Part shown: one piece after another, positions 7,569 through 24,216 of the stretch
Position numbering within the stretch: the first letter of the stretch is position 1
Layout of the letters: every line of letters starts with the position of its first letter
NCBI GenBank assembly: GCA_015075275.1
Contig: JABTUU010000001.1
Coordinates: 1,031,216-1,095,215 of the forward strand
DNA length: 64,000 bases
Direction of reading: 5' to 3'
Origin: Anaerolineales bacterium
GTDB taxonomy: Bacteria; Chloroflexota; Anaerolineae; Anaerolineales; Villigracilaceae
Made by a program: the position numbers and the translations under genes
Notes under the pieces: model-generated
Told to the model about the DNA's origin: nothing
Databases searched by the model: none
What the model saw: only the letters and a program-made list of their open reading frames with translations

Positions 7569-7648
7569 TCATTAACGCGGCGCGCTCCTCCTTGCTCAAC
7601 AAAGCGCCGCGTCCAAACTTCTTGGAGCGTTGTTTTATCTTAAAATCA

Positions 7649-9817
7649 TTACGGCGTGTAGTATTCGACAATCAACGCCGGTCGATTTCCTGCAGTTGGG
7701 GTATTGCCGCTATAAAAACGGATAAAATCCGCGCTGCCATTATCGTTATCGCCAAGGGCAAATCTCAAGCGAAATTGCGTTCGCCCTGTTTTATTGATGT
7801 AAGCGAGAATATCGCTCGTCCACACGCGTACATGCCAGCCATTCACTCGCGTAGACGGAAGCACGCCGACCGCATGCTTCGTTGCCGCGGCTTGAAAATC
7901 AATTAACTCAAGACCGGGATCGTTGCTAAACGCGCCGTTTCGCACATCCACAATCAACCTGCCGAGCGAAGTAAACGCATTCGTTCCAATCGTGCGGAAG
8001 AATCGAATCTTGAGCGTGACCTTCGTAATCACTGCGTTATCAGGAAGAGACGAAGTATCAAAAGACAAAAAGCCGCGATACTGGCGATCATCCGCATCAT
8101 CTCCCACACTGAACGCCCCCGTCGAACGATTGAGCATTCCGCCCGTAGAGCTATTCTCCGTCGCCTCCAACGTCCAACCGTCTTCCGCTCCAATCGAACG
8201 GAAAACGCTTCTACCCGGGACAGCCGAAGAGGCGCCAAAATACGCGCCCGGCGGGCTGATCGTAGCGCGAGTCGCGCCGGCGGCATCCGCGTCCACCGCA
8301 TTTGAAAGAATTCCCGGCGGAACGGAAGGCAAGGCAGGCGCATCGCTCCATATAAAATCAGGAATGGGATATGTCGTCGCAGTAAACACATTTCCGCCTG
8401 CCACAGGATGGAAGTCTCCGCCGGCAGGGTTGACTAGCTGCGGCTGGATGACGTTAATGGCGTTGTCAGCGCGTAATTGCGTTTCATTGCAAGTTGGGTT
8501 CGCAGGACGACATCCTTCACTCGAATCTTCAATTCCCAGAGGATGACCTGCCGGCCCGTTCCAGATGATGTTGCCGCGAATTCTTAAATTCACATCCGTT
8601 TTTGCGGGATTGGGAATATTCGAACCGCCCGCAGGCGTGCGCGGTCCATAAATAGCAAAATGCTGCCACGCGCTCTGGAAGCCGGCCGGGTTATAAACAA
8701 TATTATTGTAGATATACACATTGCGGTCAGGGATAGGCTCTTCGTCTCCAATAATATTTCTGCCCCATCCTCCCGCAAGCCGATTCGCATTGCATTGCGC
8801 AGCGTCGCCATCGCAAGAGCGCCCGCCAAAAACAACCTCGATCGCATGGCTGCGGCTGCCCACGCGATAGCAAGTGTTGTAAGCCATCAAGGTGTTATAG
8901 CCGCCGTTGACGCCAAAACACGCTCCTTCGACGTCGTGGATAACGTTATTGACAAATTTGACGTCATACGTTTCGTAATGCAGCCAAGGCGAGGACATGT
9001 ATTCAAACCCTGTGCCTTGCCCAGCGGTGAATCCGCCTGTGCCGCAGTTGTAAATAACATTCCCTTCCACGCGGATATAGGCTGAGCCGCCCTTCACATA
9101 GGCGCACCAGTCATCGCCGTCGTGGATTTTATTTTTTACAATATGACCATATTGCACAGATACGAAGTCAATTACATTTTCGTACGAGCCCGAAAGGTCG
9201 CTGTTTTCTATATAGAGATATTGCGACTGATTAACTTTAACGGTTTCATGCGCATCGCCATTCCCTCTGAAATCTACGTTGCGCAACAACAAATGATCGC
9301 ACAGCTCGCAATGCAATACGTCGCCGTTGACATTAATGGTCAATGATTCGATATAGAGATAGCGCGTATCGTAAATATTCAAATCGCCGAGCAAAACGAT
9401 CTGCCCGCGCGCCCCATTGCCGCGTATCCAAACAGGAGCATCATATGCGCCATAGCGCGACTCTAAGTAAACTGGAATGGAAGATTCGGGATAGCTGCCC
9501 GGCTGGAGATTAATGCGCACGCCTTCGTTCAACACAACGTTCATCGGAACGTCGTTCCATGCGGCGCTGATGGTGCGAAAGGCGGCAGCGGGCGAAGCGC
9601 CGTCATTGGCGTCGTTTCCATTAACGGGGTCCACCCAGATATCGCGCAAAGAGGGGCTTCCAGTCGCATATAACTCATAAGCAGGCGCGCGAGCCTCGAT
9701 GGATTCTCCGGCTTGGGCTGGCGCAGCCTGCGCAGAATCTGTGCGGGAAGTAAAGACAGAAAGAACAAGAATTCCAATAGAAAAAGTTGCTTTCATCAAG
9801 CGTGTCAGGGTCGGCAT
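7649..9817 (-). CDS. Secreted right-handed beta-helix protein with C-terminal DNRLRE-like domain
   Basis: Signal peptide; IWVDPVNGNDANDGASPAAAFRTI (DUF1565-like start); parallel beta-helix repeats; C-terminal YRGFLSFDTSSLPDNAVITKVTLKIR. Confidence 0.7.
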   Translation of the reverse strand: MPTLTRLMKATFSIGILVLSVFTSRTDSAQAAPAQAGESIEARAPAYELYATGSPSLRDIWVDPVNGNDANDGASPAAAFRTISAAWNDVPMNVVLNEGVRINLQPGSYPESSIPVYLESRYGAYDAPVWIRGNGARGQIVLLGDLNIYDTRYLYIESLTINVNGDVLHCELCDHLLLRNVDFRGNGDAHETVKVNQSQYLYIENSDLSGSYENVIDFVSVQYGHIVKNKIHDGDDWCAYVKGGSAYIRVEGNVIYNCGTGGFTAGQGTGFEYMSSPWLHYETYDVKFVNNVIHDVEGACFGVNGGYNTLMAYNTCYRVGSRSHAIEVVFGGRSCDGDAAQCNANRLAGGWGRNIIGDEEPIPDRNVYIYNNIVYNPAGFQSAWQHFAIYGPRTPAGGSNIPNPAKTDVNLRIRGNIIWNGPAGHPLGIEDSSEGCRPANPTCNETQLRADNAINVIQPQLVNPAGGDFHPVAGGNVFTATTYPIPDFIWSDAPALPSVPPGILSNAVDADAAGATRATISPPGAYFGASSAVPGRSVFRSIGAEDGWTLEATENSSTGGMLNRSTGAFSVGDDADDRQYRGFLSFDTSSLPDNAVITKVTLKIRFFRTIGTNAFTSLGRLIVDVRNGAFSNDPGLELIDFQAAATKHAVGVLPSTRVNGWHVRVWTSDILAYINKTGRTQFRLRFALGDNDNGSADFIRFYSGNTPTAGNRPALIVEYYTP

Positions 9818-10049
9818 AAGAATTCCTTCAAAAGAAGGTGAAATTTAAGGGCGCAAGGCAACTACATCTCTCGATTTGAAGCTAATTTTATCGGAATTGG
9901 AATAGATCGTACCGACAGTTTTGTTAACGTAGATCAAGGAGAGTATATAACCGGCTGCATATGGACGCGAAGAAAGCAGTCTTCTAGAGTTCTTACATCG
10001 GTAGACGTCGCTTCAACGGTCCTTCGCAACTGCCTAGCCGCCAAATGTA

Positions 10050-10076
10050 AAAGAGGAGACAACAAGTCTCCTCTTT
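10050..10076 (-). terminator. Intrinsic terminator of msrB
   Basis: aaagaggagac / gtctcctcttt stem, with a U-run on the minus strand. Confidence 0.7.
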
Positions 10077-10091
10077 CTAAGCATGGTCAGT

Positions 10092-10538
10092 CTACTTTTC
10101 AAACAGCAACTTATATTCTCCGTACCCTTCCTCTTCCAATTTCTCCACTGGGATAAATCGCATCGAAGCCGAATTCATGCAATAGCGCAAACCCGTCGGC
10201 GCAGGACCGTCTTCAAAAACGTGACCCAAATGCGAATCGCCTTGTTTCGAACGAATTTCAATGCGCTGTACAGACAGCTCATCGTCCTCGCACTCGACGA
10301 TATTATCCGCTTCCAGCGGCTGCGTGAACGAGGGCCAGCCGCAGCCCGAATCGAATTTGTCCAACGAACTAAATAACGGTTCGCCCGAAACGATGTCCAC
10401 GTAAACGCCGTCTGCTTTGTTGTCCCAATATTGATTCGCAAAAGCGCGCTCAGTGCCTCGCTGTTGCGTAACCTGATATTGCAACGGCGATAGTCGCCTG
10501 CGCAACTCGGCATCGGCAGGCTTGGTAAATACAGTCAT
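10092..10538 (-). CDS. msrB: Peptide-methionine (R)-S-oxide reductase
   Basis: [21 protein letters not shown] and RYCMNS motifs; zinc-binding CxxC pairs are absent. Confidence 0.95.
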
Positions 10539-10605
10539 AAAGAAACTCCTTGTTCTTCAAATGCCGAGCGTATCACGCTCGGCATTCTTTTTGACGACTC
10601 GCGCG

Positions 10606-11094
10606 CTATCTTTCTTCCCTAATCGTCAGATTCACTACGATAGCGCGACTCGCAAGGATTAAATCCTGCGGCGCGATCATAATCTCCTCGCCCCATTGAC
10701 CCGCGCCCGTGCCGAGGATGGGCTCGTTGAGCAAGGTCGCTTCAAGGAAGGAGCGGAATCCGCTGGGCTGCCAGCCGAACGCAGGGATCGAACCGATCGC
10801 GTAGCCCGTTGTATCCTTCACCGCATCGGGCGAAGCCATCTGAATATTGCGCGAACCGATCGCTCGCTTTAAATTTCCAGAGATCGCGTTCTGATCGCCG
10901 CCAAGCATAACAAGGATGCGTTCGCCGGTCTCCGTTTGAAAGATCAGTGTCTTCACCGCTTGCCGTTCAGAGAATCCCAATACATGCGCCACATGCGCCG
11001 CGCCCTTTTCAGTTTTAGGAGAAAAACTGCGCGTTTCATAAGCGATGCCGCGTTTGTCGAGATATAGATGCGGGGGAAGTTTTATCATTTGCAT
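10606..11094 (-). CDS. YbaK/EbsC family aminoacyl-tRNA deacylase
   Basis: VKTLIF, TGYAIGSIPAFG and GAGQWG motifs. Confidence 0.85.
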   Translation of the reverse strand: MQMIKLPPHLYLDKRGIAYETRSFSPKTEKGAAHVAHVLGFSERQAVKTLIFQTETGERILVMLGGDQNAISGNLKRAIGSRNIQMASPDAVKDTTGYAIGSIPAFGWQPSGFRSFLEATLLNEPILGTGAGQWGEEIMIAPQDLILASRAIVVNLTIREER

Positions 11095-11098
11095 TCTC

Positions 11099-11995
11099 TT
11101 ATCTACTCTTCACGGCAAGATAGATGCCCGCGAGAATTAACGCGCCGCCAAACAAGGTTGTTGACGAAGGCGTTTCCTGCAATATGAAATAGGCTAAAAA
11201 CGCCGAACCAACCGGTTCGCCCAGCGTGGTCGCCGCCACAAGCGCCGCCGACAGGCGCTTCAGCGCCCAATTGTAAATAGAATGACCAATAACTTGCGGC
11301 AATGCCGCCAGTAGGAAGATCCACAGATAGGTTCGCGGCGCGAGACCAAACGGCGAATCGCCGGCGGCAGTCATCGTTAATAACAACATAACGGCGGCGG
11401 CTCCATACACAAGGAAAACGTATGGGATTAATGACATGCTTGCGCGAAGCTTCCGCCCTAAGATCAAGTAACCGCTCACCGCCCACGCTCCCACAAGCGC
11501 GAGGAAATTCCCCCACATGGCGCGTCCGCTTAACCCAGCGCCGAGGCTGCCGCGCGCGTCGAAAAGCGCGATGGCAATTCCACCAGCCAGCGCCAGCGCC
11601 AGCCCAGTCAGGGCGCTGCGAGATAGGCGTTCTTTTAATAACGCCGGCGACAACAACGCCACCCAAAGCGGGCCCGTGCTGACAAATACGACCGAGCTGG
11701 CTACGCTCGTATATTCCAGCGACGTGATCCAAGCGGCAAAATGAACGGCGAGAAAAGCGCCTGAGAAAACAGCGAGTAGAATCTCAGTCTGCGAGAGACG
11801 CTTGAGTTCAACCCAGTGACGGGTAAGCGCGAGCGGAGCAATCAGCAGCGCGGCAAACGTCAGCCGCAACGCTGCGATCGTTAACGACGAAGCGCCGCCG
11901 TTCTGCGCAAATCGAATAAAAATACTTGCGGTCGAGACGGCAAGGATTGCGGCGCTTAACGCGGCGGGGAGAAAAGACCGGCTGCGGGAATCCAT
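11099..11995 (-). CDS. DMT/EamA family transporter
   Basis: About 10 TM helices in two EamA repeats; LGEPVGS motif. Confidence 0.88.
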   Translation of the reverse strand: MDSRSRSFLPAALSAAILAVSTASIFIRFAQNGGASSLTIAALRLTFAALLIAPLALTRHWVELKRLSQTEILLAVFSGAFLAVHFAAWITSLEYTSVASSVVFVSTGPLWVALLSPALLKERLSRSALTGLALALAGGIAIALFDARGSLGAGLSGRAMWGNFLALVGAWAVSGYLILGRKLRASMSLIPYVFLVYGAAAVMLLLTMTAAGDSPFGLAPRTYLWIFLLAALPQVIGHSIYNWALKRLSAALVAATTLGEPVGSAFLAYFILQETPSSTTLFGGALILAGIYLAVKSR

Positions 11996-13310: not shown

Positions 13311-14585
13311 TCATGCTTGTAAAATTTCTTCTACAGATTTAAAAACCGCTTCTCTCCCGACTTGAGCCTGCTCGCCCGTCGTCAGGTTTTTAACCACGAC
13401 CAAGCCTTTCTCTGCCTCGTCGGGACCCAGCACCAGCGCGGCTTTCATCTTCATCTTGTCGGCGAATTTAAATTGCTTCGGCAGTTTCGTCGGCTCAGGA
13501 TAAACCATCACATTGAGTCCCGCGCTCCGCAACTCTGCCGCGAGCGCGTACGATTGCGTCAACAATTTTTCATCGAATACAGTGACCAACACCTGCGCGG
13601 GGCTGGGCTGAAACTCAGGGATGAGTCCCGCCTCTTGCAGGATGATCCCCACCACCACATCGCCCATCGCAAAGCCAACACCAGACAACGGTTGCCCGCC
13701 GACATCCGCGAGCAAATTGTCGTAGCGACCTCCGCCGAAGATGGCGCGTCGCACCGACCCGCTGGTGTCGAACGCTTCGAAGACCGTGCCTGTGTAATAC
13801 AACAGTCCGCGCATAATGTTCGGATCGAACTTCACATATTCTTTCACGCCCAACGCTTCGAGCGCGGCGAATGTGCGAGTCAATTCATCGCTTTGCTTCC
13901 ATAAGTCAAAGTTGCCGAGCAAATCTTTCAAGCCATCGAGTTGACTTTGATTCAACCCGATCTCGAGCGCGTACGCATCCCATTTCGCGGATTCCATTTT
14001 GGCGCGGCGGTCAACGAGATTCGACACGTCCACGCGCTTATCGGCTGGGATGTCGAGCGAGTCGAACCGCGATTCCATCAGGCGCCGATTATTCACACTA
14101 ATTTGAGTCAGACTGGGGCTGAGTCCGACCGAGCGCAGGAACGTCGCCCCCACCGCGATGAGCTCCGCATCCGCTTCGGGCGAGTCTGCGCCGAGCATGT
14201 CAATATTCCATTGGAAGAATTCGCGCGCGCGTCCGCGTTGCGGAGTTTCGTATCTCCAAAACGGACCGAACGACCACCAGCGTACGGGGAAATTCAACTC
14301 GCCTTGTTTCGCCGCGATCATGCGCGCCAGCGACGGCGTGAGTTCGGGGCGCAGTGTTACCAAATCGCCGCCGCGATCTTCGAACGTGAACGATTGCTTC
14401 TTCACAAGTTCCTCGCCCGATTTCGCCGCGTACAAGTCAATCGGCTCGATGAACGGCCCGTCCCACTCCTGATAGCCGAACATCTCAGACGCCGCGCGCA
14501 CTTTTTCATAGATGAAGTTGCGCGCGAACATCTGCTCGGGGTAAAACTCGCGTGTGCCTTTGACGGAATTTATTTTGCTCGCCAT
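13311..14585 (-). CDS. hisS: Histidine--tRNA ligase
   Basis: LRPELTPSLAR, RYETPQRGRAREFFQ, RGLLYYTG and GGGRYDNL motifs. Confidence 0.96.
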   Translation of the reverse strand: MASKINSVKGTREFYPEQMFARNFIYEKVRAASEMFGYQEWDGPFIEPIDLYAAKSGEELVKKQSFTFEDRGGDLVTLRPELTPSLARMIAAKQGELNFPVRWWSFGPFWRYETPQRGRAREFFQWNIDMLGADSPEADAELIAVGATFLRSVGLSPSLTQISVNNRRLMESRFDSLDIPADKRVDVSNLVDRRAKMESAKWDAYALEIGLNQSQLDGLKDLLGNFDLWKQSDELTRTFAALEALGVKEYVKFDPNIMRGLLYYTGTVFEAFDTSGSVRRAIFGGGRYDNLLADVGGQPLSGVGFAMGDVVVGIILQEAGLIPEFQPSPAQVLVTVFDEKLLTQSYALAAELRSAGLNVMVYPEPTKLPKQFKFADKMKMKAALVLGPDEAEKGLVVVKNLTTGEQAQVGREAVFKSVEEILQA

Positions 14586-14648
14586 GATGACTCCAATACG
14601 GAAATTTTATCATGGCTTCTAAATGCTTCTTGATAATTCAACTTGCTA

Positions 14649-15558
14649 CCCATATCCATCTCATACCTTATTCGTATCACATTTACACCCGCCTCTGCAA
14701 CTCCGCTTACTGTGGCTCTGCGTCAAAGAACTCTGTCCCCTCCGCCATCCTGTCCATGATCTCTTTATTGAAGACCATTTCCCCGCCTGCGGTAAACTCT
14801 ATGTAGTTATAAAAGCTATCCACCACCGCCGTCTTGGGGTTCCTCCCAATAACCTGTGCGACATTCCCTACCCAGTTCATCAATTGGTTCCACGACCTTG
14901 CATTCTCGGGAATTTCATAAGTGGCGTCAGGCATCAAAACTCCATAATCATTCTTCCCATCTCCATCCTTATCTCCCAGCGTTTCACTAGATTTATCAAA
15001 CTCATTAGACATCTTAAATACCACCCGAAATACCTGTTGCCCGTTGACTATCATCCCCTCAATCGGCTCAAGTACTTGTTTCATCTGCGCCCCGCCAAGC
15101 ATCCTGATATACCCGCCCTCTTGCTGTGCCTCAGTCCAGTCCACTATCTCCATTCCCAATTGGCTCGTATCTATGAGGGCATTGTTGCCCACTCTCACGC
15201 CATCTATCTCCCACTCACTCGCAGGTCGGAACACACCTGCCGTTGATAGGACAGAGTCAGGATGCCATACCATACCTACATCCATGGCTAGTTGCAGTGG
15301 CTTATTCTTGAGCATCGCCTCGTACGAGCCGAGCGTCGGGTACTTGCCTGGCTTCTTATCCCGCACGCTCCAGGTATCGAGCCACCCGATTGTATTATTG
15401 AGTTTTGATAGAGTCTGCTTGAGCGCAGGCACATTCTCTGGGTTGAGCGTCAGGCACTGCACCGTCGCCCCCTCCGTCCCTTCCCAGAGACAGAGATCCT
15501 CTGGCGCAATGCTGAGTCCATTCTTCTCCAGCACGGCGATCACCTCTGGCGAGAATGG
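14649..15558. repeat. Direct repeat copy B (C-terminal domain plus downstream region); partner at 16998-17904
   Basis: Near-identical arms by eye, flanking a divergent core at about 14905-15107. Confidence 0.92.
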
Positions 15559-16675
15559 CGCCACATCTATCTTGACCTCGTACCTCTCCCACCCCGCTTG
15601 CCCCCATACCCATTTCTGCCCGTTCTCAGTCGTGACAACTTGCACTCCACTACTGCCGTCAATGCTAGAGACTGCAAGCCATACCTCACCCGCAATAATC
15701 ATCTGTTTATCCCCCACCGCCAACATCTGCGTACCCTGGTCCGCGAGCCTTGTCCACTCGTGAGTTGTTTGGTCAAAAGGAATATCCCATTCTCATTATC
15801 AATCCATAGTCTCTTGTCCCGTGGCGAGTAGTGGATCTCTCTATCTTTTGCCTGATACTCGCCCTCACCCGAGGCAAAGAATAATATATTCGTACTCTTG
15901 TCCACACTCTGTTGATAGTCTATCCCGTATCCTTCACCTGCCAGGAGCGCCGTCGGTCCCGAGAGGCTACTTGTCCACTTGTCACCCACTGGGAGCCACA
16001 CTCCTCTACTGCTTGGGTTGTCAGTAAATGCCGACATGTAGCCAAGAAGTTCGCCTGTCTCCCTATCCAGTTGCGCCCAGTACAGGGCAGACAGATCCCT
16101 CTGGGTTGTACCTTTACGACCTGCATACACACCGCATTGTCAGGACAGGCTATACCTACGCGCATATTGCGCACCACCTTACCATCAGGCGAGGCATACT
16201 CTATTATTGTCCCTCCTGGAGCAAGCGGACCTTGGGGCGTGAGAACAGGAGCCTCTTCGTCTCCTATCTGCGTCAGTTGCGGGGCATATACGATACCGTT
16301 CTTTTTAGCGTAGTTCACCACATGCCCATCTTGTAGCGCTGGCACGAGTCCGTGCTGGCGCAAACTCGCGTATTTCTCTCCATCCCAGGAAGTGGCTTGC
16401 AAGTCTTCAGGTAGGCCCATCTCCTCAAAATTTCCGATGATCCATTCTGGAGGAGCCGCGTTGGACGAATCAATCTCCGCTGACGAGGACAATTCCGCTT
16501 GCGGCGCGCTAGGCGTGACGACTAGGCGTTGTACAGGAGTTGACGTTGCGGTCAAGACTTCGGGAGTCTCGAAGACTTCCGAAGTCTGAGGGATGACCGT
16601 CGCTTGCGGCGTCGGCGCGGCGCAGGAAGTCAAGAGAATCATTACAAAGAATAGGAGTATTGATTTGCTTCGCAT
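14707..16675 (-). CDS. Large surface lipoprotein, copy B (about 650 aa), split by 2 apparent frameshifts
   Basis: Lipobox LLTSC and T/P linker. ORFs 15920-16687, 15699-16130 and 14707-15726 join if one base is added at a G-run near 16097 and one at an A-run near 15777. Confidence 0.65.
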
Positions 16676-16833
16676 ATTGTTCTCCATTTAATACGATTTT
16701 ACTCGCGTTGCGCGGGAATGAAGACCGTCCACGAATAGGCACGAATTCTCGAATGTCGGCTCGCTAATTCGTTTACATGTGCCCGTTAGGGTATTCGTGA
16801 GCATTCGTGGATGGTTCGCTGTCGAGTCAAAAT
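16544..16833. repeat. Direct repeat copy B (signal peptide/linker plus upstream palindrome); partner at 17974-18273
   Basis: cgttgcggtcaagacttcgggagtctc... and attcgtggatggttcgctgtc are shared with the second copy. Confidence 0.9.
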
Positions 16834-17013
16834 AGTTCTTGGCTCGCCCTCTCTAGGTGGAGCGTATCTTGCCAGCTCACTTTCCCTTACCTCCCACACC
16901 TTGCCAGGTAGACACGATATCCAGATATAGCGCTCGCCGATCTTGACTTGCCCCGCCCCGTACCAGCCTACAATAATAAGTATCAAGACAAGCGCTCCCC
17001 ATATCCATCTCAT
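16786..17013 (-). CDS. Small single-TM protein MRWIWGALVLILIIVG...
   Basis: 75-aa ORF with RBS-like aataaggt before the ATG and an N-terminal hydrophobic helix. The 3' end runs into a palindrome and is uncertain. Confidence 0.5.
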   Translation of the reverse strand: MRWIWGALVLILIIVGWYGAGQVKIGERYIWISCLPGKVWEVRESELARYAPPREGEPRTILTRQRTIHECSRIP

Positions 17014-17904
17014 ACCTTATTCGTATCACATTTACACCCGCCTCTGCAACTCCACTTACCGTGGCTCTGTGCCAAAGAACTCTGTCCCCTCCGCCATCTT
17101 GTCCATGATCTCTTTATTGAGGACAACTTTGCCTCCTGCGGTAAACTCTCTATGTAGTCATAAAGTCATCCGCCACCGCCGTCTTGGGTTCCTCCCAATA
17201 ACCTGCGCGACATTCCCTACCCAGTTCATCAGTTGATTCCCACGATCTTGCATTGTCTACGATAGATAAGGTTAAATCTGGAATTAAAATGCCATAATCG
17301 TTTACACCATCACCATCACCATCATATTTGATATTATCCGAAGCCACCGCAAGATCCGTAAACTTTATCACAACTCTAAACACTTGTTGCCCATTTACTA
17401 ATACCCTTCCACAGGTGCTAGTCCCTGTTTAACCTTTGGCCAGCACCGAATTGTATATACCCACCCTCTTGCTGTGCCTCATTCCAGTCCACTATCTCCA
17501 TTCCCAATTGGCTCGTATCTATGAGGGCATTGTTGCCCACTCACGCCGTCTACCTCCCACTCACTCGCAGGTCGGAACACACCTGCTGTTGGTAGGACTG
17601 AGTCAGGATGCCATACCATACCTACATCCATGGCTAGTTGCAGTGGCTTATTCTTGAGCATTGCCTCGTACGAGCCGAGCGTCGGGTACTTGCCTGGCTT
17701 CTTGTCCCGCACGCTCCAGGTATTGAGCCACCCGATTGTATTATTGAGTTCTGATAGAGTCTGCTTGAGCGCTGGCACATTCTCAGGGTTGAGCGTCAGG
17801 CACTGCACCGTCGCCCCCTCCGTCCCCTCCCAGAGACAGAGATCCTCTGGCGCAATGCTGAGTCCATTCTTCTCCAGCACGGCGATCACTTCTGGCGAGA
17901 ATGG
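16998..17904. repeat. Direct repeat copy A; partner at 14649-15558
   Basis: Same arms as copy B, with a divergent AT-richer core at about 17255-17455. Confidence 0.92.
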
Positions 17905-18105
17905 AGGCGCCTTCACCTTTGTCGGTTCGGGCGTTGCAGCGCTTGTCGGCGTTGACGCGGGAGTTTGGGTTGGCGTTGCGGTCAAGACTTCGGGAGTCTC
18001 GGGGACTTCCGAAGTCTGAGGGATGACCGTCGCTTGCGGCGTCGGCGCGACGCAGGAGACTAAAAGAATCGTTACAAAGAATAGGAATGTTGATTTGCTT
18101 CGCAT
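17056..18105 (-). CDS. Surface lipoprotein, copy A (about 350 aa), multiple apparent frameshifts (pseudogene or sequencing error)
   Basis: Lipobox LLVSC and T/P linker fused directly to the shared domain PPFSPEVIAVLEKNG...; TAA at 17056 matches the copy B stop; most indels sit at homopolymer or dinucleotide runs. Confidence 0.6.
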
Positions 18106-18273
18106 ATTGTTCTCCATCAATAACGATTTTACTCGCGTTGTATGGGAATGAAGACCGTCCACGAATATGCACGAACACCTGCACTGGCGTGCGGCGCCAG
18201 TGTGAACGAATTGGCGCGCCATTCGCCGAAGGTTCGCGGTCTATTCGTGGATGGTTCGCTGTCAATTCAAAAT
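17974..18273. repeat. Direct repeat copy A (signal peptide plus upstream palindrome); partner at 16544-16833
   Basis: Arms accgtccacgaat (18154) and attcgtggatggt (18243) match copy B, but the loop differs. Confidence 0.9.
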
Positions 18274-18416
18274 TCAACGGTTGAATTTTAGTTTATTTTT
18301 GGTATAATTTTTCGCAAGTATTCGTACCGCAAGATTTATCTTGCGATTCACTTGCTTTTACACTGCGCAAACGCAAAGTGAACTTTGCGGCACGAGGACC
18401 AACTCAGGAGAATCCA

Positions 18417-19217
18417 ATGGAAATCAACTACCAAGAAACTTCAAAAGACCTGCTCACCCGCATCGACATTCACGAAAAATACGGCTCCGCCAACATTGAC
18501 GTGTGGACGAACGAACTGCTCCAGCCCCAAGCGGGCATGAACATTCTCGATGTCGGCTGCGGCGCGGGCAAACTGTCTTTTCTGTTCGATGATTATACTC
18601 AACGCGGCGCGAAAATCACGGGCGGAGATTTCTCGGAAGAACTGCTCGACAAAGCGCGCGCAAAGAACAAAGAACGCGGCTCGAACATTGACTTCGTCTT
18701 TTTGGATTTCAACAAGCCGTTCAACTTTGCGGATAACTCCTTCGACCTCTGCACGAGCGCCTTCGCCATCTACTACGCTTCAGACCTCGACTTTACATTT
18801 GGTGAGGCTCATCGGGTACTTAAAACAGGCGGACGGCTTTTCGTCTCGGGTCCATTGCCCGAGAACAAGCAGATGTTCTACGAGATCATCAAAGAAGCCA
18901 CGAGCGCGACCATCCCGCCGATGCCTGGGTCGAGTCGCTTCAAAGGCGACATCTTCAACACCATTGACCGCATCTTCGCCAAGACCGAATTGCACAAATT
19001 TGAGAATCACCTCACCTTCCCCGCCGTTGCGCCGTTCATCGAATACGTCCGCGCCTCGTTGAGCGAAGACCGCAAACTGTGGACTTCCATGTTCAACGGT
19101 CATGACGAATACGAAGCCCTGATCGGCAAGATCGCTGACGTGGCGAGCCGCTGGTTTGAACGCGATGGCAAGTTGGTAATGACGAAAGTTGTGGGCGGGA
19201 TACTCGCGACGAAATAG
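18417..19217 (+). CDS. Class I SAM-dependent methyltransferase
   Basis: ILDVGCGAGK motif I, GGDFS, FADNSFDL and RVLKTGGRL; RBS aggag. Confidence 0.9.
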   Translation: MEINYQETSKDLLTRIDIHEKYGSANIDVWTNELLQPQAGMNILDVGCGAGKLSFLFDDYTQRGAKITGGDFSEELLDKARAKNKERGSNIDFVFLDFNKPFNFADNSFDLCTSAFAIYYASDLDFTFGEAHRVLKTGGRLFVSGPLPENKQMFYEIIKEATSATIPPMPGSSRFKGDIFNTIDRIFAKTELHKFENHLTFPAVAPFIEYVRASLSEDRKLWTSMFNGHDEYEALIGKIADVASRWFERDGKLVMTKVVGGILATK

Positions 19218-19220
19218 AAA

Positions 19221-19292
19221 TGTCGTTGCGAGTCTTCGAGAAGCAATCTCCTCGTCAACCAGAAGGTTGCTTCGCTATCGCTCGCAACGACA
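19221..19292. repeat. REP-like palindromic element
   Basis: tgtcgttgcgag / ctcgcaacgaca terminal arms and inner gaagcaatc / ggttgcttc arms. Confidence 0.75.
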
Positions 19293-19302
19293 TGGAAATA
19301 AT

Positions 19303-22875: not shown

Positions 22876-24216
22876 TTAGGACATCTTATCGGCAATATAC
22901 TCTTGGAAACGTTCGCGCACGCCTTCGAAAGGAATCCGCTGGAAAATAGGATCGAAGAAGCCTTCTACAACGATCTTCTCCGCCTCCGCCTGTGGGATGC
23001 CGCGCGATTTCAGATAGAAGAGCGGCTCTTGCTCCAGTTTACCAACGGTTGCGCCATGTGTACAGCGCACATCGTCGGCAAGAATCTCTAGCCCGGGGAT
23101 CGAATCGGCGCGCGCTTTATCGCTCAACACAAGGTTGCGATTCGCCTGATACCCATCGGTCTTTTGGGCGCCCGGCGCGACGTAGATCATCCCCTGCCAC
23201 ACCGAACGACTGCTGCCTTTGAGCGCGCCTTTGAACAGTAAGTCGCTGGTGGTATGCGGCGCGAGATGATTTTGCTGCGTATCGTGGTCAAAATGTTGAG
23301 CGCCATCGGTGAAGTAAAAGCCGGACATACGTCCCCACGCGCCATCGCCAGCCAGATCCAACTCAGAGAAATTCTTTGTCAAACGCGAACCGATCGCGCC
23401 GAAAATCCAGTCAAGGTTGCCGCTCTTTTCAACGCGGGCGCGCTCGTGGCTAAAATTCCAGACGTGCCGCCCCCACGATTGCAACTCGACAAATTTCAAC
23501 GTCGCGCCTTCCATCACTTGCAATTCGACGATGCCCGCGTGCAGCGAGTTTGTCCCGGTTTCGTCGGGAGACGCCGCCTCATGAACATACGTCGCCGAAG
23601 CGCCTTCGTCCACTAAGACGAGGATGTGGGAGATGTGCGCCAAATTTGCACCAGGTCCCCACAGTACGGAGTGCAGCGGTTCGTCCACCGTCACACCTTT
23701 AGGGACGTACAACACTACGCCATTTTGCGCGAACGCGCCAGCCAATGCAGAGAATTTGCCTTCTTCCACATTAACGGTTTTTCCCAGCGTCTTCGCCAGC
23801 AATTCGGGGTATTTCTCTTCGGCGGTCTTTAAATCGGTGAAGATCACGCCCTTCTTCGCAAGCGCCTCATCGAGTTCGATCGTCGCGCCGCCCGGTAAAA
23901 GGACGATCTGTCCGCCGAGTTGGTTTGCGACCAGCGGACGGAGCAAATCTTCGCGCACCGGGGGCAGATCGTTGAACGCGCCCTCCGCGGGGAATCTGAA
24001 CGCGTCTGCGGGAATAGCGTGAATGTCTGTGCGGCGCCAGGCTTCGAGAGAAGTGTCGGGCATCGCAGTCTTCTTATACGCCGACCAAGCCGCAGCTCGG
24101 TAAGAAGCGGCAGCGCCTTGTCCAATCCGCACGTCTGATTCTGCAAAAGTGAAATCTGCAGCGGCGGGGGTTGCGCGGCGAGTTTTTGAAATGACTATTT
24201 TTGGTTTTTCCTGCAT
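22876..24216 (-). CDS. sufD: Fe-S cluster assembly protein SufD
   Basis: PGLEILADDVRCTHGATVG and FYLKSRGI motifs. Confidence 0.92.
   Translation of the reverse strand: MQEKPKIVISKTRRATPAAADFTFAESDVRIGQGAAASYRAAAWSAYKKTAMPDTSLEAWRRTDIHAIPADAFRFPAEGAFNDLPPVREDLLRPLVANQLGGQIVLLPGGATIELDEALAKKGVIFTDLKTAEEKYPELLAKTLGKTVNVEEGKFSALAGAFAQNGVVLYVPKGVTVDEPLHSVLWGPGANLAHISHILVLVDEGASATYVHEAASPDETGTNSLHAGIVELQVMEGATLKFVELQSWGRHVWNFSHERARVEKSGNLDWIFGAIGSRLTKNFSELDLAGDGAWGRMSGFYFTDGAQHFDHDTQQNHLAPHTTSDLLFKGALKGSSRSVWQGMIYVAPGAQKTDGYQANRNLVLSDKARADSIPGLEILADDVRCTHGATVGKLEQEPLFYLKSRGIPQAEAEKIVVEGFFDPIFQRIPFEGVRERFQEYIADKMS

Follow-up and report, generated by a model that had tools for sequence, protein, structure and literature searches.

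The window analysed here is a stretch of 64 000 nucleotides (nt) from the genome assembly of an uncultured Anaerolineales wastewater bacterium (GCA_015075275.1, contig JABTUU010000001.1). On its minus strand, between hisS (13311–14585) and a plus-strand methyltransferase gene (18378–19217), it carries two tandem lipoprotein genes, one short and one long, whose shared C-terminal domains combine almost identical arms with a sharply bounded and highly divergent core. Comparison with related genomes indicates that segmental gene conversion between paralogs probably made this mosaic, a reading to which we assign a probability of about 80%.

Mosaic structure of the tandem genes

After removal of the sequence errors described below, the short gene (copy 2, 17056–18117, minus strand) encodes 354 amino acids (aa) counted from MENNMRSKS, or 350 counted from MRSKS, and has the lipobox LLVSC. 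The long gene (copy 1, 14707–16687, minus strand), which lies in direct orientation to it, encodes 659 aa after three corrections of insertions or deletions (indels) and has the lipobox LLTSC. The long product consists of a signal peptide, a linker, an N-domain and a C-domain, in that order. Its beta-rich N-domain (15559–16538, minus strand), an insert of 305 residues found only in the long form, corresponds to the roughly 300 extra residues that a first-pass annotation of this DNA had seen in one of the copies.

The same annotation had described two direct-repeat units, and we recovered every one of its repeat pairs within about 5 nt of the position given for it. The repeat arm of unit 1 (14645–15558, minus strand) comprises the C-domain of copy 1, a 47-nt spacer and the first seven codons of a gene with an MRWIW start; the arm of unit 2 (16994–17904, minus strand) comprises the C-domain of copy 2, the spacer and the MRWIW start. 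Depending on the block, the arms are 92–98% identical: 92% for 14645–14800 and 16994–17149, 95% for 14837–14891 and 17186–17240, 98% for 15107–15194 and 17455–17542, and 96% for 15194–15493 and 17540–17839. At the other end of each gene is a 5' cassette (16539–16833 in copy 1 and 17969–18273 in copy 2, both on the minus strand) made of an upstream palindrome, a ribosome-binding site (RBS), the signal peptide and a TSEV/PT linker. The cassettes are 90% identical over the pair 16539–16745 and 17969–18175, and 94% identical over a 31-nt pair (16803–16833 and 18243–18273). Thus, the palindrome and the MRWIW start that had been attributed to each unit were both found.

Pairwise alignment of the units revealed near-identical flanks around a stretch of ∼ 200 nt that can barely be aligned. 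A two-breakpoint maximum chi-square scan placed this divergent core at codons 150–218 of the C-domain (14905–15108), with 97 differences in 204 nt as against 33 in the 645 nt of the rest of the domain. The chi-square value of 215, compared with a largest value of 19 in 200 permutations, indicates a sharp clustering of the differences and bears out the divergent segment of about 200 bp proposed in the first pass. The core of copy 1 (14905–15108, minus strand, ...SNEFDKSSETLGDKDGDGKNDYGVLMPDATY...) is referred to as type A and that of copy 2 (17255–17455, minus strand, ...TDLAVASDNIKYDGDGDGVNDYGILIPDLTL...) as type B. The calcium-type loop motifs that were said to be kept in spite of the divergence, DKDGDGKNDYG and DGDGDGVNDYG, are both present.

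Comparison of the two copies by identity and by the ratio of non-synonymous to synonymous divergence (dN/dS), as had been suggested for this locus, yielded near-identical arms and an old core. In the left arm, copies 1 and 2 share 96.8% of their nucleotides, with a synonymous divergence (dS) of 0.095 and a dN/dS of 0.16; in the core, they share 56.6%, and the synonymous sites are saturated (proportion of synonymous differences, pS, 0.83). Core and arms must therefore differ greatly in age, and the saturation between the two core types indicates that these types are old.

Three kinds of comparison with other genomes bear on how such a structure arose. First, the left arm of either copy in the window is only 87% identical to that of the long gene at the hisS locus of UTCFX1 (UTCFX1_long; dS 0.44–0.49), and the housekeeping DNA on either side of the two hisS loci is 93% identical. 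The arms are thus more similar within the genome than between genomes, as is expected of concerted evolution. This agrees with the earlier suggestion of a recombination-shuffled locus with homogenised arms, and so does the way in which the cores regroup. Second, adjacent segments with sharp boundaries have incongruent relationships, another hallmark of gene conversion. The arms of copy 2 group with those of copy 1 and of JASOAC_348, whereas its core groups with those of UTCFX1_long and SHAF_350, to both of which it is 86% identical at the nucleotide level. JASOAC_348 has the core most similar to that of copy 1 (75%, with the best match in its left part), and at the protein level the copy 1 core is nearly identical to those of P0004, P0007 and P0008. 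Type B resides in the short gene in the window and in the long gene in UTCFX1.

Third, other members of the family share tracts of the same kind. UTCFX1_long, at the hisS locus, and SHAF_350, at the tsaD locus, have a tract of ∼ 270 nt with no differences at all (100% identity), the remainder of the two genes being 73–98% identical; the genomes that carry these two genes are ∼ 95% identical around tsaD. The tsaD-locus pairs of UTCFX1 and SHAF22 are 87–98% identical over their first 300–420 nt and mostly 40–67% identical beyond, their conversion tracts thus lying at the 5' end. Within the genome from which the window comes, the N-domain of copy 1 is ∼ 96% identical in amino acid sequence to that of the paralog P0015, encoded on the same 1.59-Mb contig. 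P0015 also shares the first ∼ 45 residues of the C-domain with copy 1, and over the rest of that domain the two are less than 50% identical.

These comparisons show that homologous recombination between paralogs repeatedly overwrites segments of these genes, which has left the arms in the window almost identical. The 204-nt core persists as a set of old, discrete allelic types and travels as a block between genes, between the long and short architectures and between loci. The core, a predicted beta-hairpin, short helix and calcium-type loop, may set the specificity for a putative ligand, and the set of paralogs would then provide a slowly reshuffled repertoire, not a fast switch.

The order of the two genes at the hisS locus is short-long in the window (14600–18300) and long-short in UTCFX1 (7600–11300 of locus L005), and the flanks are collinear. 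The genes next to the pair in the window are hisS, the methyltransferase gene, a PIG-L gene and suf genes.

Integrity of the locus

In the window as given, both lipoprotein genes are frameshifted: three open reading frames (ORFs) make up the long copy, and the frame of the short copy changes at least five times. These breaks, which the first-pass annotation did not mention, are caused by ten indels, all of them at homopolymers or dinucleotide runs. In the long gene, the reading frame is restored by inserting an A at 15774 and removing one nucleotide each at 16099 and 16113. The short gene requires the removal of two nucleotides at 17146 and of one at 17239, and the insertion of A at 17161, G at 17185, C at 17403, A at 17438 and CT at 17539, as well as one substitution (G to A at 17438). 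Two of these seven indels (17403 and 17438) are in the core of copy 2 and the other five flank it, within 17146–17539. With the corrections, both genes read through to give products of 659 and 354 aa.

Support for the corrections comes from two sources. Short-read contigs (Logan) were available from one metatranscriptome and from eight DNA metagenomes of eight studies, dated 2018–2025 and obtained from wastewater, sludge, biofilm and bioreactor material. In each of these nine runs, every one of the ten sites that is covered shows the same correction at 100% of the depth. In addition, the independent assembly GCA_949319435.1 matches window positions 24105–16176 exactly, save for seven indels and one mismatch, all within 17150–17542, and its protein P0001 is 100% identical to the corrected short protein. 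Because the independent assembly, the eight metagenomes and the metatranscriptome carry intact versions, the frameshifts are consensus errors left in the repeat by the assembly and do not reflect pseudogenisation. Real frameshifts in two decaying pseudogenes would fit the ten or more frame-breaking indels of the window as given. However, every indel sits at a homopolymer or dinucleotide run and is absent from the otherwise identical assembly, from the eight DNA runs and from the metatranscriptome contigs, and the adjoining genes are intact. We rejected decay on the strength of the independent assemblies and the reads, and consider it very unlikely. One practical consequence is that the public long contig (1.59 Mb) contains ten frameshift errors confined to the repeat, and its annotation splits the two genes into fragments (P0010 and P0019).

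The tandem layout was evaluated using the same data. An independent contig (L001) spans copy 2, the MRWIW gene and then the first 166 aa of copy 1. In run X5, the word depth is 222 and 232 for the two cores and 164–186 for the single-copy flanks, and the pattern is similar in three further runs, so that cores and flanks agree within about twofold in four runs of four studies. Each of the eight DNA runs contains both cores. The N-domain has about twice the depth of the flanks in X5. Contigs of the metatranscriptome cover both genes at a depth below those of hisS and of the SOD gene, although DNA carry-over is possible in that library. The locus therefore consists of two real, complete, same-strand tandem genes.

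The first-pass annotation had itself named a chimeric assembly of two strains as grounds for abandoning its interpretation. In favour of two strain alleles of one gene having been chained by the assembler, the ten consensus errors fall exactly in the repeat region, where short-read graphs also fragment. This is nevertheless an extremely unlikely explanation and was rejected: the junction from copy 2 through MRWIW to copy 1 is present in an independent assembly, in four runs the depth of the two cores is roughly that of the single-copy flanks, the cores occur together in every DNA run, and UTCFX1 and SHAF22 also have tandem pairs.

Tempo of change and comparison with known systems

The first-pass annotation proposed that one loop region is now diversifying in the manner of antigenic or phage-receptor variation. 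This part of its interpretation was not supported. In addition to the saturation of synonymous sites, dN/dS within one core type (copy 2 compared with UTCFX1_long) is 0.20, like that of the arms, and positive selection on the core was rejected on these values. The reads, which had been suggested as a means to detect mixtures of alleles, showed both cores to be letter-for-letter constant in the eight DNA metagenomes, including run X15, in which hisS differs at 24 sites. For the core of copy 1, contigs covering 14827–15164 have no mismatches in X1, X5, X7, X8 and X12, and shorter pieces have none in X15, X19 and X20. Each copy comes with its own 5' region, RBS and signal peptide and with a full ORF; being complete, neither is a silent cassette or donor. 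Thus, we found no donor devoid of a promoter or signal peptide and no heterogeneity of the core across the eight DNA runs. Rapid diversification is not supported, and the data point instead to slow reshuffling of old allelic blocks.

Recent tandem duplication, followed by fast divergence of the loop under positive selection and without recombination, would also leave nearly identical arms next to a very different core, and the right-hand arm indeed has a raised dN/dS (∼ 0.5–1.1, on few codons). This scenario is hard to reconcile with synonymous sites that are saturated in the core at an arm dS of 0.095, with the low within-type dN/dS and with the occurrence of each core type at 75–100% identity in other genomes, architectures and loci, and we regard it as highly improbable. 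Much the same degree of doubt applies to programmed variation, in which the core would be the target of a diversity-generating retroelement (DGR), or the locus an expression site that switches within the population with the help of silent cassettes. Two features favour it, namely a variable segment with sharp bounds between conserved arms and the presence of palindromes nearby. However, a DGR is expected to confine the differences to adenines, whereas the core substitutions between the two copies are of all 12 types and lack an adenine bias, with changes at similar rates at 29 of 60 A, 16 of 27 C, 33 of 65 G and 19 of 52 T sites; a DGR was rejected on this spectrum, and a retroelement mechanism for the core differences appears unlikely. 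Nor would switching be expected from copies that are direct, not inverted, that each have their own expression signals, and whose cores are invariant in the eight DNA metagenomes and in the RNA contigs.

Several points weigh against segmental conversion between genes for binding modules. The arm identity of the window pair taken by itself could be explained by recent duplication, the case for conversion being carried by the other genomes, and Logan contigs drop rare variants, so that low-frequency alleles could escape. The calcium-type loop is degenerate in UTCFX1_short, P0016 and P0022 and is therefore not essential to the fold. Searches with the short form, the long form, MRWIW and the remote homologues gave no match above the cut-off in Pfam, NCBIfam, PHROGs or PADLOC, and no fold match with E < 0.001 was obtained for two AlphaFold models compared with the PDB, the second of them also with a viral library. 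Confidence in the models is moderate, with a predicted local distance difference test (pLDDT) score of 61 overall and 75–92 for the C-domain in the second model.

Segmental conversion has well-known parallels. In Helicobacter pylori, the outer-membrane adhesin paralogs babA, babB and babC occupy several loci; their 5' and 3' arms are nearly identical, the middle part, which determines binding specificity, is divergent, and conversion between the loci gives rise to chimeras. The window genes share the near-identical arms, the divergent middle and gene conversion between loci. The Bab proteins, however, belong to a diderm pathogen; they form beta-barrels in its outer membrane, their ligands are known and they undergo slipped-strand phase variation, whereas the proteins studied here are lipoproteins of an unrelated fold in Chloroflexota, and no switching was seen in their populations. 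The Borrelia erp genes, with their 'upstream homology box' (UHB), and the mlp genes are multicopy lipoprotein genes with a conserved upstream region and leader and with mosaic, recombining mature parts. The likeness to the window genes lies in the conserved upstream region, the leader and the mosaic mature part. The difference is that erp and mlp are borne on plasmids or prophages and encode host-interaction proteins, whereas the genes described here are chromosomal, located among housekeeping genes (hisS, tsaD and a Mur-ligase-like gene) of members of a free-living community.

Neisseria opa and Treponema tpr genes likewise combine a conserved framework with discrete variable segments, and recombination between loci gives rise to mosaic alleles, as it seems to do here; they vary measurably in populations and during infection, whereas both cores of the window are constant in eight metagenomes over seven years. 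DGR targets are similar in having a short variable region in the conserved C-terminal domain of a surface protein, and differ in their adenine-specific pattern, which is lacking here, and in that the copies studied here are complete genes. The genes thus belong to an uncharacterised, new protein family that follows a well-known evolutionary pattern and resembles bab or erp/UHB, not a programmed switch. The family documents how segmental gene conversion has shaped surface lipoproteins specific to one lineage of filamentous Anaerolineales, organisms that structure the biofilms of anammox and activated-sludge communities and whose envelope proteins are almost undescribed.

A short patch of the N-domain appears to differ between strains. 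At 16145–16169, there are seven substitutions in 25 nt that change NMRVG to YVRAG, the state of P0015 and UTCFX1_long. The YVRAG version is the sole one in runs X11, X12, X15 and X19, and the contigs of X1 and X5 lack the patch (two mismatches). It looks like a short conversion tract.

Proteins, further paralogs and palindromes

Both products are predicted to be extracytoplasmic lipoproteins. They begin with MRSKS and reach an LL[TV]SC lipobox, in the segments MRSKSILLFFVMILL-TSC-AAPT and MRSKSTFLFFVTILL-VSC-VAPT. A lipoprotein was taken to be defined by positive charges near the N-terminus, followed by a hydrophobic segment and by a lipobox of the form [LVI][ASTVI][GAS]C, and this signal peptidase II pattern was found in both proteins and in all full-length homologues; lipidation is thus predicted. 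The signal is followed by a tether (PQATVIPQTSEV.ETPEVLTATPT...), to which the short form adds a stretch rich in Thr and Pro. The shared C-domain of ∼ 285 aa has a single DxDGDG loop and a GTEFF motif at its C-terminus; two Cys residues (DLCLWEG...QC) and several Trp, Pro and Gly residues are invariant. In the second AlphaFold model the N-domain is beta-rich, and its matches to propeller-like folds are weak and non-significant. From this architecture, the proteins are putative binding modules tethered outside the cytoplasmic membrane or at the cell surface.

DxDxDG calcium-binding loops of the Rigden and Galperin class are thrombospondin type 3 or dockerin-like. The D-x-D-G-D-G-x-N-D-x-G sequences found here fit the D-x-D-x-D-G pattern, and DKDGDGKND and DGDGDGVND also have the downstream acidic ligand. 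The differences are that there is a single loop, not an array of repeats, that it has no match in Pfam and that it is degenerate in several family members, so metal binding is putative.

The family is small, with 20 matches among 5.8 billion protein clusters; among 1.84 billion representatives, five clusters scored below 1e-30, and there were a few remote lipoproteins of like design. Its named sources (UTCFX1, SJ198, HS124 and KJZ52) are all metagenome-assembled genomes (MAGs) of Anaerolineales or Anaerolineae, and the family was found solely in UTCFX1-like Anaerolineales, which live in wastewater and anammox communities. Such an unannotated ORFan family with a conserved disulfide pair and a calcium-type loop would be a sensible choice for structural work and binding assays.

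The first-pass annotation also recommended looking for further cassettes, and these exist both in the window's genome and in related MAGs, including the tandem pairs of UTCFX1 and SHAF22. A third arm variant is present at 1× depth in four runs and agrees with the P0003 gene at all eight diagnostic single-nucleotide positions. In other assemblies, the P0003 gene adjoins a Mur-ligase-like gene and is followed by an intact MRWIW gene of ∼ 160 aa. Loose contig ends at 15313/17659 and 17850 read ITAHPLQLAK and ALEKSGLAVN, which are sequences of P0015. Together with the two window genes, the P0003-type gene and P0015 bring the window's genome to at least four paralogs; in general, a genome has four or more members of the family, several of which form tandem pairs.

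The MRWIW gene is itself an ORFan, for which the homologue search gave only two clusters, both unannotated. The version between the two copies (16786–17013, minus strand) is truncated: its first 60 codons match the gene for a small membrane protein of ∼ 160 aa and are followed by 15 foreign codons, the homology ending at 16832/16833, precisely at the start of the copy 1 5' cassette. At the end of unit 1, directly upstream of hisS, only a stub of eight codons (MRWIWVAS, then a stop; 14638–14664, minus strand) is present. At locus L003, the gene that follows an intact MRWIW gene (9575–10087) encodes a Cys/Gly-rich secreted protein of 170 aa; the lipoprotein, MRWIW and Cys/Gly-rich genes may form a three-gene module there.

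An Rfam scan of 14400–18500 gave a chance match only, and a promoter and terminator scan yielded nothing informative. Each lipoprotein gene is preceded, ∼ 35 nt before its RBS, by an imperfect palindrome with four CACGAAT/ATTCGTG boxes (16724–16815 for copy 1, ACCATCCACGAAT ... ATTCGTGGACGGT; 18154–18255 for copy 2). The outer arms are conserved, the interiors differ, the fold z-scores are −1.9 and −2.7, and the UTCFX1 long gene is preceded by such a palindrome as well. The palindrome may serve as an operator or form a hairpin in the 5' untranslated region.

A second, near-perfect palindrome of 33 nt lies within the linker coding sequence (16555–16587 in copy 1, QTSEVFETPEVL; 17985–18017 in copy 2) and encodes QTSEV.ETPEVL. 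Its 13-mer GACTTCSGAAGTC has four hits in the window, all of them there, with 0.06 expected. A 19-nt version was found in at least 116 stretches of the species genomes of GTDB (loci L009–L124). Among the matches listed, about ten are in the same N-terminal lipoprotein context, and most are non-coding palindromic repeats ('ETSEVLKTSEV', surrounded by stop codons) from MAGs of Chloroflexota and some Planctomycetota. Two MAGs carry the motif within a longer repeat, estimated to be perhaps 100 nt long and similar to miniature inverted-repeat transposable elements (MITEs), in 10 to ∼ 40 copies. Many read contigs break at the linker palindrome, where the depth is ∼ 4 times that of the flanks.

Five other proteins (P0017, P0018, P0020, P0025 and P0027) have unrelated mature domains behind the same signal peptide, TSEV palindrome and PT tether, with ∼ 55% amino acid identity over the first ∼ 60 residues. 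The 5' cassette thus serves several families in these genomes. A broader possibility would be a combinatorial repertoire of surface lipoproteins found in Chloroflexota alone, in which a universal export cassette (5' palindrome, signal peptide and TSEV/PT tether) is recombined with interchangeable modules such as the N-domain, segments of the C-domain and the core with its loop. The tether palindrome, an in-frame copy of a repeat that is widespread in Chloroflexota genomes and resembles repetitive extragenic palindromic (REP) sequences or MITEs, would serve as the joint for recombination. We consider this unlikely. A general role of the linker palindrome as the joint was not supported, as in other lipoproteins the shared cassette runs past it to the end of the PT tether.

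Another palindrome, an inverted repeat of 36 nt with a 2-nt spacer, occupies 19220–19293 between the methyltransferase and PIG-L genes. In X5 the depth rises there to 590 compared with 186, and many contigs end at this point with differing continuations, which suggests another dispersed palindromic repeat.

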